Notes under the pieces: generated by a model
What the model saw: only the letters and a program-made list of their open reading frames with translations
What the model was told of the DNA's origin: nothing
Databases searched by the model: none
Shown here: positions 7,079-14,924 of the stretch, one piece after another
Position numbering within the stretch: the stretch's first letter is position 1
How the letters are laid out: every line of letters starts with the position of its first letter
Translations under genes and position numbers: made by a program
NCBI GenBank assembly: GCA_048882385.1
Contig: JBHLRQ010000045.1
Span: 1 to 23,955 of the forward strand
DNA from: Candidatus Thorarchaeota archaeon
Lineage (GTDB): Archaea > Asgardarchaeota > Thorarchaeia > Thorarchaeales > Thorarchaeaceae
Length of the DNA stretch: 23,955 nucleotides
Direction: 5' to 3'

Positions 7079-7531
7079 TCATGAAACCTCCAGATCTTCA
7101 GTCTGAACGCCACTGTTTCTAAGACTTACTTTTCTCTTCACAAATGTCCAGTAAGTGTAGAAAAGAGCCCATCCAACAGTTGGAATTGCTACAAAGATAT
7201 AGAACTCAAAAGCTGCGAAAAAGAAATAGATGTTGAAGAAGATCATCATTAGCACATTCATTATCCACGACCTCTTCTGCCACCCATAGCTAGATACAAT
7301 ATGTACTGCTCTTAGCGCTGCATATCCTCTACTGGTGAGTGTATACAATCCATCACTGTCAGTTGTTATGACAGATTCCATCTTCTTCAAATGGAAATCC
7401 AAGAGCCCTCCACTCTTAATCTTGAGTGTTCTCTTAAGGTCTGCAAACCGTCTAGGCTTTTTTGAGAGTTCTTTTAGAATCGCAATTCTCATTGGATGAG
7501 AAATCGCTTCAAACACTTCATCCGAGGTCAT
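7079..7531 (-). CDS. ArsR-like winged-helix transcriptional regulator with two C-terminal TM helices
   Basis: FEAISHPMRIAILKEL...FADLKRTL...LDFHLKKM...YTLTSRG is an ArsR-type wHTH. Hydrophobic segments MNVLMMIFFNIYFFFAAF and FYIFVAIPTVGWALFYTYWTFV are followed by KRK. Confidence 0.85.
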   Translation of the reverse strand: MTSDEVFEAISHPMRIAILKELSKKPRRFADLKRTLKIKSGGLLDFHLKKMESVITTDSDGLYTLTSRGYAALRAVHIVSSYGWQKRSWIMNVLMMIFFNIYFFFAAFEFYIFVAIPTVGWALFYTYWTFVKRKVSLRNSGVQTEDLEVS

Positions 7532-7562
7532 TTTTCTTCATGACAGATGTGGTATTGGAGGG

Positions 7563-7568
7563 ATATAA
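7563..7568 (-). promoter_or_regulatory. Putative archaeal TATA box (TTATAT) for the wHTH gene
   Basis: Minus strand reads GATTATATCC about 32 nt upstream of the ATG at 7531, a spacing compatible with an archaeal promoter. Confidence 0.4.
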
Positions 7569-7579
7569 TCCTACGTTCC

Positions 7580-7595
7580 TTGACCAGTCGGTCAA
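7580..7595. promoter_or_regulatory. Palindromic operator-like site TTGACC-N4-GGTCAA
   Basis: TTGACCAGTCGGTCAA in the divergent intergenic region. A further TTGACC half-site lies at 7602-7607. Confidence 0.55.
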
Positions 7596-7745
7596 TGACT
7601 CTTGACCTTAGTATCTATCTAGCGATTCTAAAAGAATAACATTTTCTTCAAAGTCATTATGAGTAGCAATCTCGTTTTTGGGTGTTTGAGATATTCCTAC
7701 TGAGACCAAAGGATGTATATTCATTCAGACAATGTGTCGCACTAC

Positions 7746-7764
7746 TTTCTCATATCGTGAGAAA
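7746..7764. promoter_or_regulatory. Inverted repeat TTTCTCA-N5-TGAGAAA upstream of uvrA (operator or hairpin)
   Basis: Perfect 7-bp arms at 7746-7752 and 7758-7764. Confidence 0.4.
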
Positions 7765-7774
7765 CCTCAAGCTG

Positions 7775-7831
7775 ACATCAGGCCATTGTGCCCCTTCATG
7801 TTGGAACGGAGGCAAGCGGTTGAACTGATGT
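7775..7831 (+). other. Long imperfect RNA stem-loop immediately before the uvrA Shine-Dalgarno sequence
   Basis: ACATCAG (7775-7781) pairs with CTGATGT (7825-7831). Inner pairings are GCC/GGT, TGCC/GGCA, CC/GG and TTC/GAA. SD GGGAGG at 7833-7838. Confidence 0.4.
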
Positions 7832-7847
7832 AGGGAGGCATGAATGC

Positions 7848-10682
7848 ATGAGAGAACACATTAGTGTAAAGGGAGCTAGGACTAACAATCTTAGAAATAT
7901 CGATGTGGATATTCCGCGAGACCAGCTCACCGTGATTACAGGAGTGTCGGGATCCGGAAAGACTTCGCTAGCTTTTGACGTTATTTTTGCAGAAGGTCAA
8001 CGTAAGTTTTTCGAATCTATGTCAGCAACGTCTCGATCTATGCTACCAATGCTAGAACGAGCTGATGTTGACTCCATACTTGGACTCTCCCCTGTTGTTG
8101 CTATTGAGCAACGTACTGGAACACAGAATCCAAGATCTACAGTCGGGAGCATGACTGATATCTCCAGCTACATGAGAATCCTCTTCTCAGTGCTGGGTCA
8201 GGCACATTGTCCCTACTGCAACAAGAAGGTCCACACACGTAACGCAAACCAAATTGTTGATCACCTCATGACACTTCCCGAAGGGACACGTGTCGAGATT
8301 CTTGCACCCGTGAACAAGATCTATGATGAGGACTATCCCTACATGTTCGACGATATACGAACAAAGGGATACAAGAGAATCAAGATTGATGGAGAACCGT
8401 TCACAATCAGCGATAAGATAGACCTCGATGAAGCGAAAGACTATCGAATCGAAGTCGTTGTTGACCGTATCATCATCAAGAAGGATCTCTATCATCAGTT
8501 TGCAATATCAATTGAGAATGCAAAAGAAGTAGGTAGTGGGTTCATTAGATTCGAATTCTCAGATGAGAAGATTCCTGAGGATATCTTAGGTAAGTTCTAT
8601 GAGAACTTTGGATGTAAAGACCACCATATTGTGATGCACACCCTGCTACCAGGAGCCTTCTCTGCAAACCTGCCTGACAACGCATGTCCTACATGTCTGG
8701 GTATGGGTATGTTAATGAAGGCAGACGCACGGCTTGTAGTCGTCGACCCAAGAAAGGGTATGAACGATGGTGCACTGAAGTGGTGGGCTAAGTACTGGGC
8801 ATATAGCATAAGTCAGCACCTAGGGTTCGAATTGAAGACTCCATGGCAGGACTTGTCAAAGGATATCCAGGACCAGATCCTATTTGGCATAAGAAAGGAG
8901 TTCATCCTTCAAGAACCGCCAGACTGGCCAAACAAGTATCGTCATCGCAATGTCGGACAGAAGGTCCGATTTCTGGGCATCTGTAAATATATTGACAGAC
9001 ACTATAGGAATGACAGAAAGAAGGGAGAGCGATACGAGTGGTATCGAAAACTGATGACTGAACATACATGTCCTGATTGTCAGGGAAAGAAGCTCATTCC
9101 CCAGCGCTTGCTTGTCACAGTGGACGGTAGGAATATCGATGAGCTAGGTGAATACTTCATCAACCATCTACTCGAGTATGTGGACTCCATCAAGATTCCC
9201 AAAGGCAAAGAGAAGGCAGGAAACCAGGTCATCTCAGAGCTTAGGAAACGAATCCAGCTCCTGGATGACATCGGTCTTTACTACCTAAGGCTGAATCGTC
9301 GTGCCAGAACTTTGAGTGCTGGAGAAGCTCAGAGAATCAAGCTATCAACACAATTGGGCTCAGAACTCATGGGGATGTTGTATGTGCTCGATGAACCATC
9401 GATTGGGCTTCATATACGTGATAGCAACAGAATCATTGACATCCTCAAACGACTGCGAGATACAGGAAATACCGTTATTGTCATCGAACATGACTTGGAT
9501 ACTATTAAACAGGCAGACAATATCATTGAGATAGGACCAGGACCGGGTGTACATGGCGGCAAGATCATGGCGCAGGGAGTGTACGATGATGTCCTTGAGA
9601 ATCCGAAGTTCCTCACAGGTCACTACCTAACAGGGAAGAAGCAGATTCCATATCTTGGGAAAGCCCGAAAGCCCAATGGTAAATTCTTGAAGGTAATAGG
9701 TGCGAAGGAGAATAATCTGAAGAATCTGTCAGTTGAGTTCCCTCTCGGAGTTTTCATCTGCATTACAGGAGTTTCTGGGAGCGGGAAAAGCACACTGATT
9801 GAGGATGTCCTGGGAAAGAAGCTTATCCATGACATGAGAGACCTTCGAGTCATTCACGGCAAACTGGACAAGATAGAAGGTATGGAGAATGTAGTGGATG
9901 TACGGATTGTTGACCAGTCACCCATTGGAAGACATTCCAGGAGTATACCTGCAACCTATGTTGGATTCTTCGATAAGATACGACGAGTTTTCGCTGACAC
10001 TGAGATGGCAAATGAACGTGGCTACAAGATTGGAAGATTCAGTTACAACTCAACTGAAGGACGCTGTGCAGAGTGTAACGGAGAAGGTCTCGTTCGCATC
10101 GAGCTGCAGTACATGCCGGATATTCAGACCATCTGTCCTATCTGTAAAGGAGCTCGCTTCTCTGAAGAAGTCCTCGAGATTAAGTACAAGGGTAAGAATA
10201 TCGGTGACGTTCTGAACATGACTATCGAAGAGGCTAACAAGTTCTTCAAAGATACTCGACTCATCTACCACAAGACCAAGACCATGATGGAACTCGGTCT
10301 AGGATATCTCAAACTAGGACAGCCAGCACCAACATTGAGCGGCGGAGAATCGCAACGTATCAAGCTTGCAAAGGAACTTGGAAAACTCAAGAAACTGAAA
10401 GACAACCTCTACATTATGGATGAACCAAGTGTGGGCTTGCATATGGAAGATATCCAGATGCTTCTGAAGACTATCAACAAGCTTGTGGATGCAGGAAACA
10501 CTGTCATCGTAATCGAGCACCATCTAGACATCATTAAGTCAGCGGATTGGGTGATTGACTTGGGTCCAGAAGGTGGAGCTGAAGGCGGTGAGGTCATTGC
10601 TGAAGGAACTGTCGAAGACATCATCAAGTGTGAGAAGTCATACACTGGTCAGTTCCTCCAGAATGTTGTGGAGACCTCCTAG
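7848..10682 (+). CDS. uvrA: UvrA-family ABC ATPase (excinuclease subunit A-like, divergent)
   Basis: 944 aa. Two Walker A motifs ([18 protein letters not shown]), signatures [11 protein letters not shown] and [11 protein letters not shown], Walker [12 protein letters not shown] and [11 protein letters not shown]. Zn ligands CPYC/CKDH, CPTC/CPDC and CAEC/CPIC. SD GGGAGG 9 nt upstream. Confidence 0.95.
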
Positions 10683-10702
10683 GCCAACAGGAGCTGTTGT
10701 AC

Positions 10703-12598
10703 ATGGAAGATCCACAAGTTAGAAAGATGTTTGATGAAGCACTTAGTCGCTTCATCGAACAAGCAAAGGAGGATAGTAGGGTCCTCGCTATCATCATCTA
10801 TGGTAGTATGGCATATGATGAGGTCACCGAACGATCGAACATCAATGCCTATGTCATTGTCGACGAGGGACAACATCGGACAGCAAGACTCGTAGAGTAT
10901 GGTGTTCCAATAGATGTTGGGATCTATAACAAGAATGAGTTCATGAGAAGAATTCAGCATACGAGAGGAAGAGGAATATGGCAGGTCCTCACCTATAGCA
11001 AGCTGGTCTTCTCCAGAGATTGTTCATTCACAGACTGGTATAAGAACCGGAGTAAGAATGTCGGAGTGAGGGACAGAGGGTATCTTCAGATGTTGTACTT
11101 TATGGCTGTTAAATTCGACCTGCAGAAAGCTGAGAAGTATCTCTATATCAAAAACGACCTTGCTCATAGCTTTCACTTCTTCCTTCATGGACTCAGTGAA
11201 CTGGGGTATCTACTCTGTTATCTCAATGATGTCTGGCCACCCCGAGAAGTAATTCTGAAGGGGAGAGAGTTTCTCCCAGACCTGTTCCCGAAGCTCTTTG
11301 ACGACCTCATTGACACCGAGGTGACAAAGGAGTCTCTAGACAAAGCCATTAGAACAGCCTACGAATACATGGACTCCATAGACCTAGAGGTTCACAAACC
11401 AGTCCTTGATTTCATCTCAGATGAGGGAGGAACTGCATCACAGACAGATATCATGACGAGATTCGGTCTCAAAGGAATGGTCATCTTCGAGGCAGAACAT
11501 CTTCATCGAAGACGAATTCTACGACGCACAGTCACCCCAGTAAAGCTCACGAAAAAAGGTGTTGTAGAATACAACGAACCACTTTATCACTTTAGTTGGA
11601 ACTCATTCAATCCAGATGCTGTTAAACCAACGCGAGTTGGACCTGCTGATGTTGAGAGAGAACGTGTTCATGCAGACTATCAGAGCGCATTAGATGAACT
11701 TACTGAGAAATGTGAGAGGGACGAATATGTCCTCAACTTCATGGTATCCGGTAGCCTCTCCTATGACACAGTATGGGAAAAATCCGATATCGATTTCATG
11801 ATAGTCGTTAGAGACGAACCGTATGGAAGACGTCGTGGTTTTGTTGAGAAAGATGTCTTCATGGAAGGGGAGGTTGTGACTCGTGATTATTTCAGAAGAG
11901 GAACTAATAGGGTAAAAGACGGAAGTATCTTCCACTCGTACTTTTCAAAGAGTAAACTGCTTGTGTCTAAAGATGATTCGATCATGGACTATTATGAAGA
12001 TGTGAATAACATGGGTTCTCGAGATGTGGAAGACCTTCTGTTACTGAACTACATCTTCTGTAAGGATCTCATAAACAAGGCACACAAGGCACTCTATGTA
12101 AAGGATAATCCTCACTTTGCATTGAACTTCATAATGTCTGGGATTCGGAGAATGGCTAATATCGAAGTGCTCCTCAATAGAGGGATTCCACTACGAGAGT
12201 CTACAGTACAAGCACTAGAGTACAATCCCGAGTTCTTCAAGACCATATTCCTAGATATGGTTCATTCGCCTGAGAAGACCTGTGAGGTCGTTAGCGATGT
12301 TTTAGAGAAGATGGAGAACTACTTGGATGAACACTTGAAGCAATTCATACAACCTGTTCTTCGCTTGCTCGAGAAGAAGGAAGAGATAACACATTATGAA
12401 CTAAAGGACCACTTTATTGACATCTGGCTACCAGTGGACATGAGAGAGTTCGTCGAAAAGGGATTCATTCGACAGACAAAAGCTCCCTTCAGGTTTACAA
12501 AGAAAAGCTCTGCTGAGATGATTCAACCTGCATACCAACTGGCATCATCAAGGTCAGAGCACGAGATTGCGATGGATGAGGAGTGGAAGTTAGTATAG
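10703..12598 (+). CDS. Tandem two-module Pol-beta-superfamily nucleotidyltransferase-like protein (N-module degenerate, C-module with intact GS...DxD)
   Basis: Internal duplication of about 300 aa: YGSMAYDEVTERSNINAYVIV versus SGSLSYDTVWEKSDIDFMIVV. AGGAG at 10689-10693 lies 9 nt before ATG 10703 (the ORF track starts at TTG 10697). 20 nt after the uvrA stop. Confidence 0.8.
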   Translation: MEDPQVRKMFDEALSRFIEQAKEDSRVLAIIIYGSMAYDEVTERSNINAYVIVDEGQHRTARLVEYGVPIDVGIYNKNEFMRRIQHTRGRGIWQVLTYSKLVFSRDCSFTDWYKNRSKNVGVRDRGYLQMLYFMAVKFDLQKAEKYLYIKNDLAHSFHFFLHGLSELGYLLCYLNDVWPPREVILKGREFLPDLFPKLFDDLIDTEVTKESLDKAIRTAYEYMDSIDLEVHKPVLDFISDEGGTASQTDIMTRFGLKGMVIFEAEHLHRRRILRRTVTPVKLTKKGVVEYNEPLYHFSWNSFNPDAVKPTRVGPADVERERVHADYQSALDELTEKCERDEYVLNFMVSGSLSYDTVWEKSDIDFMIVVRDEPYGRRRGFVEKDVFMEGEVVTRDYFRRGTNRVKDGSIFHSYFSKSKLLVSKDDSIMDYYEDVNNMGSRDVEDLLLLNYIFCKDLINKAHKALYVKDNPHFALNFIMSGIRRMANIEVLLNRGIPLRESTVQALEYNPEFFKTIFLDMVHSPEKTCEVVSDVLEKMENYLDEHLKQFIQPVLRLLEKKEEITHYELKDHFIDIWLPVDMREFVEKGFIRQTKAPFRFTKKSSAEMIQPAYQLASSRSEHEIAMDEEWKLV

Positions 12599-12636: not shown

Positions 12637-12649
12637 CCTTCTTTCTTTC
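12637..12649 (+). terminator. Pyrimidine-rich tract, possible archaeal terminator for uvrA-NTase
   Basis: CCTTCTTTCTTTC about 40 nt after the stop at 12598. Confidence 0.3.
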
Positions 12650-12717: not shown

Positions 12718-13860
12718 ATGCAGTATAGGACTCTAGGAAAAGCAGGTAACAAAGTATCTGCACTTGGATTTGGGTGTATGCGACTTCCAACTCTTGAAGA
12801 TGGAAAAATCAATAGAGAAGAAGCAATCAAACTCATCCGCAAAGGAATTGATAATGGAATAACATATGTGGACACAGCCTGGACCTACCACGGTGGGGAA
12901 AGTGAAGTCGTTGTTGGATTAGCATTAAAAGATGGTTATCGAGAAAGAGTCACTCTGGTGACAAAATGCCCAGTGGGTCGCTCCGAATTCACAGAACCTG
13001 AACATTATGATGAACATCTCAAGGAACAGCTTGAACGGTTGGATGTAGACCATGTAGATTATTACTTGTTTCACGCTCTAAACAAAAAGTCATTTGAGGA
13101 GAAAGTATTGGGTCTAAATCTAATAGAACGGGCATTGAAAGCAAAGGAAGATGGGAAAATCAAGCATATCGGATTCTCTTTTCATGACACTACAGAAGCT
13201 TTGAAAGAAATCATTGATTCTAGCCACTTCGAATTAATGCTAGTTCAATACAATATCGTTGACCAGGTAAATCATGATATGATCAATTACGCAGGGGAGA
13301 AAGGTCTCGCGGTGGCAACGATGGGATCTGTTGGTGGTGGTAGATTGGCAGGAAAGGATCTTCCTGAAGAAATGAAGAAATGGCTGACACCTGGTCGTAC
13401 AAACTTTGCAGACCTAGCTTTCAAGTTTGTGCTAAGCAATCCAAATGTTTCTGTGGCATTATCAGGCATGGGAACTGAAGAGATGCTGGATGATAACCTC
13501 AGTATTAATTCACGAGAAGATTATGATCAACTTTCTAAAAGAGAGAGGGAGTCCATTGACAGTATTGCAGCACGATTCAAAGAACTCTGTGACAACATAT
13601 GCACACAATGCAAGTATTGTCAGCCCTGTCCAAACGAGGTCAATATCAGCTTCATTTTCGAGCAACTTCAGCGCTATCAGATCTATGGTGATCAAGAGAA
13701 AGCGAAGCGCTACTATTCGATGATTGGAAAAGCTCCATGGGCTGCAGGAAAAGATGCATCAGCATGTGAACAGTGTGGTGATTGTCTAGAGAAGTGTCCT
13801 CAAAACATAGAAATCATTAACCAGCTAGAAAAAGCTCATGAAGTTCTCCAGAACAAATAG
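12718..13860 (+). CDS. Aldo/keto reductase with C-terminal 4Fe-4S dicluster domain (COG1453-type)
   Basis: YRTLGK..VSALGFGCMRLP, YVDTAWTY (catalytic D/Y), LVTK, YLFH, GKIKHIGFSFH. C-terminal CTQCKYCQPCP and CEQCGDCLEKCPQ. Confidence 0.92.
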   Translation: MQYRTLGKAGNKVSALGFGCMRLPTLEDGKINREEAIKLIRKGIDNGITYVDTAWTYHGGESEVVVGLALKDGYRERVTLVTKCPVGRSEFTEPEHYDEHLKEQLERLDVDHVDYYLFHALNKKSFEEKVLGLNLIERALKAKEDGKIKHIGFSFHDTTEALKEIIDSSHFELMLVQYNIVDQVNHDMINYAGEKGLAVATMGSVGGGRLAGKDLPEEMKKWLTPGRTNFADLAFKFVLSNPNVSVALSGMGTEEMLDDNLSINSREDYDQLSKRERESIDSIAARFKELCDNICTQCKYCQPCPNEVNISFIFEQLQRYQIYGDQEKAKRYYSMIGKAPWAAGKDASACEQCGDCLEKCPQNIEIINQLEKAHEVLQNK

Positions 13861-13880: not shown

Positions 13881-14924
13881 ATGGATGATGATATTGATAT
13901 TTCCAACCCTTTCTTCTCAAGAGTAGAGAGAGAATTTCGCAGATGGGCAAGAGATCATCCAGATCAGGTCTATTCTGCCCCTCCCGATGCACTACAGGAA
14001 GGGTTTGAGTACTTCTTCACAACTCGAGCAGACAAAATGCCCAATGGTGGACCTTCCATAAGAAGAGTTGGAATGTTGGGAGAACGAGGGATGCCAAGAC
14101 GTGCTATGCCAGCTCTCATAAGAACCATGCTTACAATAATGAGAGGAATGAGCACAAGTTGGAAAGAAACCAACAGATACCTGGATAATCTGGATCCTAT
14201 ACCATTTGAGCCCAAACCTGAATTGTGGTCCGAGCTGAGTGAATGGGTGGGAAGAAAATGGAATGATGTGATTCTGGCCTTCACCGAACTCCCTGAACAG
14301 ATGATCTTCAAGGGCAAATCGACTCTCTTCAAATATGCACTGGTCGTAGGACAAGAGATGAAGAAGAAGGAAATCGACTATGCACCAGGATATAAAGCAG
14401 GCAAAGAAGTAATGCGAGTCTATGGAAGCCTTGGAATCGTTGTTAATGACATAGCTCATTGGCTTCGAAAGAGGGGAGTGCGTTGTCAGAGCAACCATCC
14501 ACTAGGAGGTCTTACTAATACAACTTCTTTGGCTGGAAAAGCTGGGATGGGATGGCAAGGCCGCAACGGTCTCCTGATTACACCTGAATATGGTCAGCGA
14601 TTACGCTTGGCTCCAGTCTTTGTTGAGCACAAATATTTCGAATACACTGACAATCGAGACCATGATTGGATTGAAGAGTACTGCGAGCTATGTAAACGAT
14701 GCGAAAAGGAATGTCCTCAACAGGCTATCTATAGTGACAAAGTAGTCCGGATTGAAGATGTACCTGGGGTTGGATCGCTTAAGACATGTATTGACAGAGA
14801 CCTTTGCTTTGATTTCTTCTGGAAGACAATGGGATGCTCTGTATGTGTCAAAGTCTGTCCATTTTCAAAAGCAGGTGACACATACGAGAAACTCAAAGCT
14901 GTGGTAGAAAACAGGTGGGAGTAA
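13881..14924 (+). CDS. Reductive dehalogenase / epoxyqueuosine reductase (RdhA/QueG)-like cobalamin-Fe-S protein
   Basis: AGKAGMGWQGRNGLLITPEYGQRLRL, CELCKRCEKECPQQAI, C..C...GCSVCVKVCPF. SD AGGAG upstream, 20 nt after the AKR stop. No twin-arginine signal peptide followed by a hydrophobic region. Confidence 0.8.
   Translation: MDDDIDISNPFFSRVEREFRRWARDHPDQVYSAPPDALQEGFEYFFTTRADKMPNGGPSIRRVGMLGERGMPRRAMPALIRTMLTIMRGMSTSWKETNRYLDNLDPIPFEPKPELWSELSEWVGRKWNDVILAFTELPEQMIFKGKSTLFKYALVVGQEMKKKEIDYAPGYKAGKEVMRVYGSLGIVVNDIAHWLRKRGVRCQSNHPLGGLTNTTSLAGKAGMGWQGRNGLLITPEYGQRLRLAPVFVEHKYFEYTDNRDHDWIEEYCELCKRCEKECPQQAIYSDKVVRIEDVPGVGSLKTCIDRDLCFDFFWKTMGCSVCVKVCPFSKAGDTYEKLKAVVENRWE

Follow-up and report, generated by a model that had tools for sequence, protein, structure and literature searches.

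The uvrA-nucleotidyltransferase locus

The stretch of DNA analysed here (the window) comprises the 23,955 nucleotides (nt) of contig JBHLRQ010000045.1 from a Candidatus Thorarchaeota archaeon. It carries a uvrA gene that is directly followed by a gene for a tandem nucleotidyltransferase (NT) and preceded by a structured leader (Table 1). A first-pass annotation of the sequence had taken the two genes for a candidate undescribed system, in which an orphan, divergent UvrA is coupled to a double nucleotidyltransferase. We find that the uvrA-NT pair is a real, conserved and apparently undescribed system, and that its uvrA is an extra paralog in a genome that has other uvrA genes.

The NT gene begins 20 nt after the uvrA stop codon (TAG, ending at 10682), with its own Shine-Dalgarno (SD) sequence, and its ATG agrees with the database gene call of 631 residues. 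This spacing, as well as the pyrimidine tract behind the NT, had been described correctly by the first-pass annotation, and so had the absence of uvrB and uvrC, neither of which was found among the 17 window proteins scanned. Named homologs of the NT come for the most part from Thorarchaeota, and a TATA-like AT-rich word is found at the same distance from the leader in related loci. Contamination or a chimeric contig was considered and rejected, as the flanking genes recur around the uvrA-NT pair in genomes of the same genus. The end of uvrA may couple the translation of the two genes through a predicted hairpin. In the window (10661-10712) its last codons can base-pair with the SD of the NT, and at the junctions of loci L044-L052 with the initial codons of the NT gene.

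Table 1. Positions of the features of the uvrA-NT locus in the window.
Feature	Positions	Strand	Evidence or remark
TATA-like box, putative promoter	7713-7721	+	about 33 nt 5' of the first leader hairpin
Structured 5' leader, candidate translational switch	7741-7841	+	16 aligned instances, predicted folds
Leader hairpin P1	7746-7764	+	predicted fold
Leader anti-SD, CCTC	7765-7768	+	predicted pairing with uvrA GGAGG, 7834-7838
Leader helix CATCA/TGATG, then long variable inner stem	within 7741-7841	+	predicted fold
uvrA paralog, 944 residues	7848-10682	+	open frame; member of NT-linked clade
UvrB-binding-type domain, residues 133-237 of UvrA, remodelled surface	8244-8558	+	PF17760, E 4.7e-25
NT SD, AGGAG	10689-10693	+	6 nt past the uvrA stop
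Tandem YgxA/3C18-like NT, 631 residues	10703-12598	+	ATG start; alternative TTG start at 10697
NT unit 1, metal motif degraded to N46-x-N48 (10838-10846)	10703-11608	+	alignment
NT unit 1 helix K142-A-E144-K145, invariant	11126-11137	+	alignment
NT unit 2, intact G350-S351...S361-D362-x-D364 (D-x-D at 11786-11794)	11651-12553	+	alignment
Pyrimidine run of 13 nt, possible archaeal-type terminator	12637-12649	+	39 nt past the NT stop

The two genes are linked in archaea and in metagenomes

We searched 400 genomes of the phylum for the NT. The single protein as query detected it in 50 and a profile at 1e-15 in 44; by the profile, it is missing from all 135 genomes of the largest family. In 42 of 45 NT places that we fetched from Asgard genomes, a uvrA of the same strand lies no more than 2 kb away; the other three are one locus at a contig edge and two NT remnants. 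Two gene orders occur. Fourteen loci have uvrA followed by a tandem NT, with a gap of 15-34 nt in nine, a gap of about 150 nt in two and an inserted alpha/beta hydrolase gene in three. The opposite order, a single NT of 310 residues followed by uvrA, is seen in 28 loci, and in all 21 single-NT junctions printed the stop and start codons overlap or lie at most 2 nt apart.

Metagenomes gave a similar picture. Among the best 80 of 562 stretches encoding an NT relative, 62 have uvrA within 2 kb downstream on the same strand, and where at least 500 nt of downstream sequence was available uvrA adjoins the NT in 54 of 58 loci; in one of the exceptions uvrA is split by a transposase-like insertion. 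Conversely, a profile of the UvrB-binding domain of these UvrAs, built from the same NT-linked loci, identified 45 places in 38 of the 400 genomes, of which 42 adjoin an NT, two are at contig ends and one is intact and has no NT. Neither uvrB nor uvrC was found at any of the 125 NT loci (45 Asgard and 80 metagenomic). The adjacency of uvrA and NT, which the first-pass annotation had noted, is far beyond chance, and we consider it quite probable that the two proteins act together.

Could the two instead be independent resistance genes that happen to share a promoter? One genome (G376) has a tandem-type uvrA with an intact leader and no NT (locus L195, 2740-5689), and the hydrolase gene inserted at three loci would also fit such a loose association. 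The linkage, on the other hand, holds in both search directions and in both gene orders, start and stop codons overlap, and all other neighbours change, so that we regard this explanation as very improbable. The UvrA of L195 has several changes in conserved motifs, and its gene is followed by CAAX-protease-like, metallo-beta-lactamase-like and PadR-like genes (labels assigned by eye).

The pair occurs patchily and is frequently lost, leaving leader and NT remnants at deleted sites. Decayed loci of this kind (L060, L062 and L212-L214, in genomes G348, G365, G343, G351 and G361) consist of the leader fused to an NT C-terminal remnant, or of the leader alone with the same genes on either side, indicating repeated loss of the operon in the genus and family. 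A GTDB scan with the single NT protein found one locus, and no relatives were found in viral contigs or plasmids with the queries used. We infer that loci L082-L161 are bacterial, because of their G+C content (43-71% where computed), their sigma-70 fusions and their homologs named Planctomycetota, Caloramator and Poribacteria.

A UvrA paralog with a remodelled UvrB-binding domain

The genome is 95% complete and contains seven UvrA matches including the window gene. A uvrB-uvrA-uvrA-uvrC cluster is located on another contig (C37, 15485-25676), where the uvrB match is split in two by unresolved bases. The window uvrA is therefore an extra paralog and not the sole uvrA of the genome, and the notion of an orphan uvrA in a genome without UvrBC has to be given up. 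Its product is 43-45% identical to the two C37 copies. UvrA matches were present in all 37 NT-carrying Asgard genomes, several in most of them.

By domain content the protein is a complete UvrA. It passes the NCBIfam cut-offs of TIGR00630 (1112.6 versus 729.8 bits) and NF001503 (1151.2 versus 1147 bits), and contains both the UvrB-binding domain (PF17760) and the insertion domain (PF17755). Both Walker A lysines (K38 and K647) and the Walker B residues D515 and D858 are intact, as they are in 62 of 62 proteins of its clade. All three zinc sites are kept; in the clade the last two are invariant and the first nearly so. The model of the UvrB-binding domain has a normal fold, with a root-mean-square deviation (rmsd) of 2.1 from 3fpn_A.

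We built a tree of 98 UvrA sequences with a small reference set: 62 NT-linked proteins, 32 other class I proteins (9 from named bacteria), 2 short Asgard proteins and 2 of class II type. All 62 NT-linked UvrAs form a single clade (FastTree support 1.0, stem 0.36), which received an SH-aLRT of 100 on a 38-sequence subset and is also seen in the best IQ-TREE tree, given without support values. The window UvrA does not group with housekeeping UvrA, in agreement with the divergence noted at first pass.

What sets the clade apart is the surface of the UvrB-binding domain. The equivalent of E. coli R216 is an arginine in 1 of 62 NT-linked proteins versus 28 of 32 other class I proteins (the window protein has Q217), and R216 and E222 occur together in 0 of 62 versus 27 of 32. 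In the window protein E222 is kept as E223. The clade has instead gained an acidic patch, in which E150 and E161 are invariant (62 of 62) and Y159 nearly so (60 of 62), and the mean net charge of residues 148-200 is -5.1, compared with +1.2 in other class I proteins. The positions of R176, R206, E219 and E222 vary freely in the single-NT and metagenome members, where a different patch is invariant. DNA-contact residues are kept (R712 in 62 of 62, R724 in 60 of 62), the roles of these residues and of R216 and E222 being those given in PMC3025350.

The paralog thus shares with class I UvrA (TIGR00630; PDB 9gxk, 3zqj, 2r6f, 3uwx and 3fpn) the full domain set, the ATPase and zinc sites and the UvrB-binding fold, at 40-45% identity, but differs in forming a separate clade, in losing R216 and gaining the acidic patch, and in being an NT-linked extra copy that is never found beside uvrB or uvrC. 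Class IIa UvrA (Ecm16 and DrrC; PDB 7sh1 and 2vf7) is likewise an extra UvrA outside the repair operon, and the role that we propose below, against DNA-binding drugs and without UvrBC, would by analogy resemble that of Ecm16, which according to PMC9328131 gives echinomycin resistance without UvrA/B/C/D. The same paper defines class IIa by the lack of the first zinc finger and of the UvrB-binding domain. The window UvrA has both, and a dedicated partner in place of the solitary action of class IIa proteins; it is about 40% identical to them and far apart in the tree. Membership in class IIa, and with it an architecture like that of DrrC and Ecm16, which the first-pass annotation had named for comparison, was therefore ruled out.

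The intact fold raises the alternative that the paralog is a sensor that loads the genome's own UvrB on special lesions, with the NT as an accessory or regulator. Passing both UvrA equivalog cut-offs would fit such a role, as would the normal UvrB-binding fold, the retention of R177, R207 and E223 in the window protein, and the presence of a uvrB match in 30 of the 37 NT-carrying Asgard genomes (the other seven are 60-93% complete). The absence of the R216-E222 combination from the clade, the free variation of interface positions next to an invariant patch of another kind, and the absence of uvrB and uvrC from the NT loci argue in the opposite direction, and we consider this alternative quite unlikely.

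As seen at C37 and L166-L174, the housekeeping locus in Thorarchaeota has two different uvrA genes in tandem between uvrB and uvrC, and in two other Asgard families both housekeeping UvrAs are fused into a single protein of 1,920-1,975 residues, which suggests a heterodimeric UvrA. Contig C6 (42573-48562) encodes a further, 1652-residue double UvrA-like protein with counterparts of about 1,620-1,680 residues in many Asgard genomes. Directly 3' of it is a gene for a 345-residue protein resembling prenyltransferase/squalene-cyclase repeats, and an AlkD-like gene lies nearby (both labels by eye).

A tandem nucleotidyltransferase with one intact site

The NT carries two Pol-beta nucleotidyltransferase (NTase) stretches, its halves being 26% identical over 306 residues (E 2e-29), and each unit is composed of an NTase domain, a helical bundle and a winged helix. 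The first-pass description as a double NTase stands as far as the two units go, but the metal-binding DxD is present in only one of the two sites: the motif hG[GS]x9-13DhD is intact in unit 2 as GSLSYDTVWEKSDID and has become NxN in unit 1.

A model predicted from 46 sequences (pLDDT 89.9, pTM 0.88) has 3c18 as its best fold match (Foldseek E 3e-12; 279 residues, the C-terminal domain included, aligned at Z 17.9). The YgxA/3C18-like family is also the best profile match (E 2e-8), and PF22339 matches 9 of 21 NT members (best E 3e-4); identity to this family is 12-14%, and no function for 3c18 was found in open PMC or bioRxiv text. Lower matches are ANT(4') (Z 14.2, 236 residues aligned, rmsd 3.5-3.6), LinB (Z 11.4), HalB (Z 9.6) and the MNT antitoxins (Z below 8). 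The ANT(4') match supports an NTase domain followed by a four-helix bundle, and the final 65 residues of the unit match winged helices (Z about 7), with a conserved basic wing. With ANT(4')-Ia and LinB the NT shares the NTase domain and helical bundle, the GS...SDxD motif and the pattern expected of a site shared by two units; it differs in its extra winged helix, in its obligate-looking ATPase neighbour and in having no evident counterpart of their acidic drug-binding and base residues. An MNT-HEPN toxin-antitoxin pair, in which a minimal MNT of about 100 residues adjoins a separate HEPN RNase gene, was ruled out by the 310-residue three-domain unit and by the NF047752 score (17 bits, cut-off 60); a HepT-like gene is near only 1 of 48 metagenome loci.

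A profile search at 1e-10 yielded 545 representatives. In 178 distinct single units (units with 40 or more gaps were dropped) both aspartates of the DxD and both lysines of a KxxK helix are each 96-98% conserved. Tandem proteins depart from this in a complementary manner. Unit 1 has the DxD in 0 of 65 sequences, NxN in 60 and K-x-E-K in all, whereas unit 2 has the DxD in 59 of 66. Eight other tandem fusions, some in Hermod-, Odin- and Poribacteria-named proteins, stem, according to the tree, from no fewer than three further duplications. Exactly one DxD is kept in all eight, and in six of them the unit with the DxD lacks the first KxxK lysine while its DxD-broken twin keeps a basic residue there.

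In KNTase and LinB, as described in PMC4631478, two subunits contribute to each site, one with its NTase domain and the other, which provides K149, with its bundle. The second KxxK lysine of the NT and the aromatic residue after it align by eye with KNTase K149-W150. Based on this precedent and on the complementary losses, we infer that NT units form dimers with shared active sites, in which one site would suffice and one is always kept; the window NT is likely a one-chain pseudo-dimer with one dead and one intact half. That one site is always kept argues for real nucleotide chemistry.

Around the predicted site the conserved residues are basic (R80, K145, K148 and R184, profile numbering), as would suit an anionic acceptor, and NT units are fused behind an ECF sigma factor in P0095, P0097, L087, L092 and L109 and behind an AraC domain in P0105. 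Such features, together with Hailong HalB and the MNT antitoxins among the lower fold matches, may point to damage signalling, in which the UvrA paralog would sense damage and switch on the NT, the product being a nucleotide messenger, a short oligonucleotide or a nucleotidylated protein such as UvrA or a regulator. However, the pair has no conserved neighbour that encodes an effector, toxin or receptor, PADLOC gave only short NTase-motif matches, and viral contigs and plasmids showed no relative with the queries used. We see signalling as a somewhat unlikely role.

A structured leader and other signs of inducible control

A leader of 100-120 nt, not mentioned in the first-pass annotation, precedes all tandem-type uvrA genes examined, and 16 instances were aligned. 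Its elements are, in order, a hairpin CUCA-N5-7-UGAG, an SD-complementary CCUC, a helix CAUCA/UGAUG with a bulge of 4 nt behind it, and a long, variable stem. In 10 of 11 leaders the SD is paired in the minimum-energy fold (z -1.35 to -4.93). Ensemble calculations give an unpaired SD fraction of no more than 12% in 15 of 16 leaders, and freeing the SD costs 1.4-7.3 kcal/mol. An alternative hairpin UGAG-AAAC-CUCA is predicted, which would mask the anti-SD. Over 17 named pairs 98.5% of cells can pair in these related sequences, and four pairs have two-sided changes, all of them in the inner helices. A protein operator as an explanation for the first inverted repeat was ruled out by its loop length, which varies from 5 to 7 nt. 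We regard the leader as a concrete candidate for a translational RNA switch occurring naturally in archaea.

Rfam gave no family match on window positions 7500-7950 (best E 4.3, far under gathering scores). Our leader model matches 16 of 86 genomes of the family, of which 11 are training loci and five are weak; the weak matches in G343, G348, G351 and probably G361 are remnants at deleted operon sites. At single-NT and metagenome loci the model had no clear match and two weak partial ones (E 0.024 and 0.24). Known translational riboswitches that mask the SD, such as the yjdF azaaromatic riboswitch, resemble the leader in its predicted anti-SD/SD pairing and alternative hairpin; the leader differs in being archaeal, in its two-hairpin layout and in having no Rfam match, and it could be controlled by a protein.

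Other lineages appear to use other means. GyrI-like domains are small-molecule binders with DNA-alkylating drugs among their ligands, and a gene for an ArsR-GyrI-like protein lies directly upstream in about 10 of the 28 single-NT Asgard loci (three confirmed by Pfam, the rest by visible likeness). A word TTCAGTAAAA(T/A)TAGTACT, shared 5' of this gene in L063-L068, L070, L072-L074 and L076, overlaps the likely promoter and is a probable operator. Because leader, ArsR-GyrI regulator and ECF sigma/AraC fusions occur in different lineages, the pair seems to be under inducible control by different means in each.

Further sequence elements were seen near individual loci. In Hodarchaeales-type single-NT loci (L077-L081, L043 and L178-L181), 100-145 nt upstream of the NT start, CCTCC[GA]GC can pair with GC[CT]GGAGG across the SD, and a compensatory change is seen. 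Since a BRE/TATA-like word (BRE, transcription factor B recognition element) sits between the arms, this could be an inverted repeat of the DNA and not a leader RNA. The CTCA-N6-TGAGAAACCTC upstream of the L087 fusion resembles the start of the Asgard leader but was not scored by the RNA model. Four copies of a short intergenic repeat CTCAC..TTGAGCACCCTTT lie within 9 kb of G356:C59 at L074 (3193, 4426, 6120 and 8373). A sigma-70 promoter scan was at chance level, as expected for an archaeon.

Regulation and neighbourhood also bear on non-canonical repair, by which the NT would replace UvrB in the second step, modify DNA (an end, nick or adduct) or clamp it through its winged helices, and hand the site to general repair. 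LexA-type boxes occur in 7 of 55 upstream regions versus 3.6 expected, equal to the shuffle maximum of 7. The LexA box consensus of Bacillota is GAAC-N4-[AG]TTC, and words like it are found about 42-80 nt upstream of the NT in L140, L154 and L160. Six of 48 metagenome loci have repair genes (UvdE, AlkZ-like, HhH-GPD, a ligase and two polymerase exonuclease domains) at a distance of up to about 2 kb, a count for which no background rate was computed. The basic wing of the C-terminal winged helix and the conserved DNA contacts of UvrA would suit such a role too. Nevertheless, no nuclease or helicase is linked, the NT fold is that of small-molecule NTases, and the regulator is of a drug-binding type, so that we hold repair of this kind to be unlikely.

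Proposed mechanism

Of resistance, non-canonical repair and signalling, the roles suggested at first pass, we rank resistance or detoxification first. We tentatively favour, judging from the sequences, an inducible two-protein module independent of UvrBC, in which UvrA would find DNA-bound drugs or adducts and the NT would nucleotidylate them. A drug or stress signal would open the leader or, where a single NT is under an ArsR-GyrI repressor, release that repressor; coupled translation would then yield both proteins. As class I UvrA and Ecm16 do, the UvrA dimer would scan DNA and stall at a drug-bound or adducted site. The NT, as a dimer or, in the window, a pseudo-dimer of one chain, would dock on the acidic, remodelled UvrB-binding domain and also contact DNA through its basic winged helix. 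One unit would supply the DxD and its partner the KxxK helix of a composite site, which would transfer a nucleotide to the displaced drug or adduct, which could then no longer rebind.

Several findings weigh against this proposal, the acceptor of the NT being its weak step. At the position of the third carboxylate most single NTs have H, N or Q (tandem unit 2 has E or D), and the proposed base of KNTase, E145, has no evident match by eye; hhalign aligned the NT with KNTase over only 41 columns at 10% probability, which cover the motif and do not reach the E145 helix. An aminoglycoside-type acceptor is doubtful for these reasons, and the acceptor is probably not an aminoglycoside. A few single NTs have NxD, among them those nearest to the tandem clade. 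Among the 94 + 29 neighbouring proteins scanned no drug-biosynthesis context was seen, and the metagenome loci have no conserved third gene. As to the linkage, three metagenome loci have no uvrA in 500-700 nt downstream of the NT, L195 keeps its uvrA without an NT, and related genomes are not independent samples. The leader helices P1 and P2 are invariant and so have no covariation support.

Use of UvrB must be weighed as well, given the uvrB matches in most NT-carrying genomes. The residues aligned to R176, R206 and E222 are kept in 14 of 14 tandem-type UvrAs, R176 and R206 of the E. coli protein being ones that we take to have a role in the UvrB interface. Moreover, an E. coli UvrA with R216A and E222A still gave strand-biased repair and was not dead, as stated in PMC3025350. 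On both grounds the tandem-type proteins may still work with UvrB.

Other genes on the contig

The NT is followed by an aldo-keto reductase gene with a 4Fe-4S tail (12718-13860), and the reductase also lies 3' of the NT in several genomes of the same genus. Next comes a gene for a reductive-dehalogenase/QueG-like Fe-S protein (13881-14924), scoring under both cut-offs. A radical SAM protein truncated by the contig start (76-1044) has weak likeness to Rv2578c/PA0069 and to spore photoproduct lyase, and is a second possible DNA-repair gene on the contig.

Implications

Both folds of the pair, UvrA and NT, were already known. We found no paper on the pair or its leader in the open text of PMC and bioRxiv.

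Extra UvrA copies are common and mostly unexplained, and those characterised have no UvrB-binding domain and act alone. The NT-linked clade retains this domain with an altered surface and, apparently in two domains of life, is accompanied by one specific enzyme. It is possible, though we put it forward with considerable doubt, that the pair represents a new branch of UvrA systems in bacteria and Asgard archaea, in which the NT replaces UvrB and ATP-driven recognition of lesions or drugs on DNA leads directly to nucleotidyl transfer instead of excision, and that a natural archaeal riboswitch sensing the DNA-binding compound turns on the operon in Thorarchaeota and one more Asgard family. The pair offers a two-protein test of whether UvrA can pass a damaged site to something besides UvrB, and would give the YgxA/3C18-like fold its first functional context.

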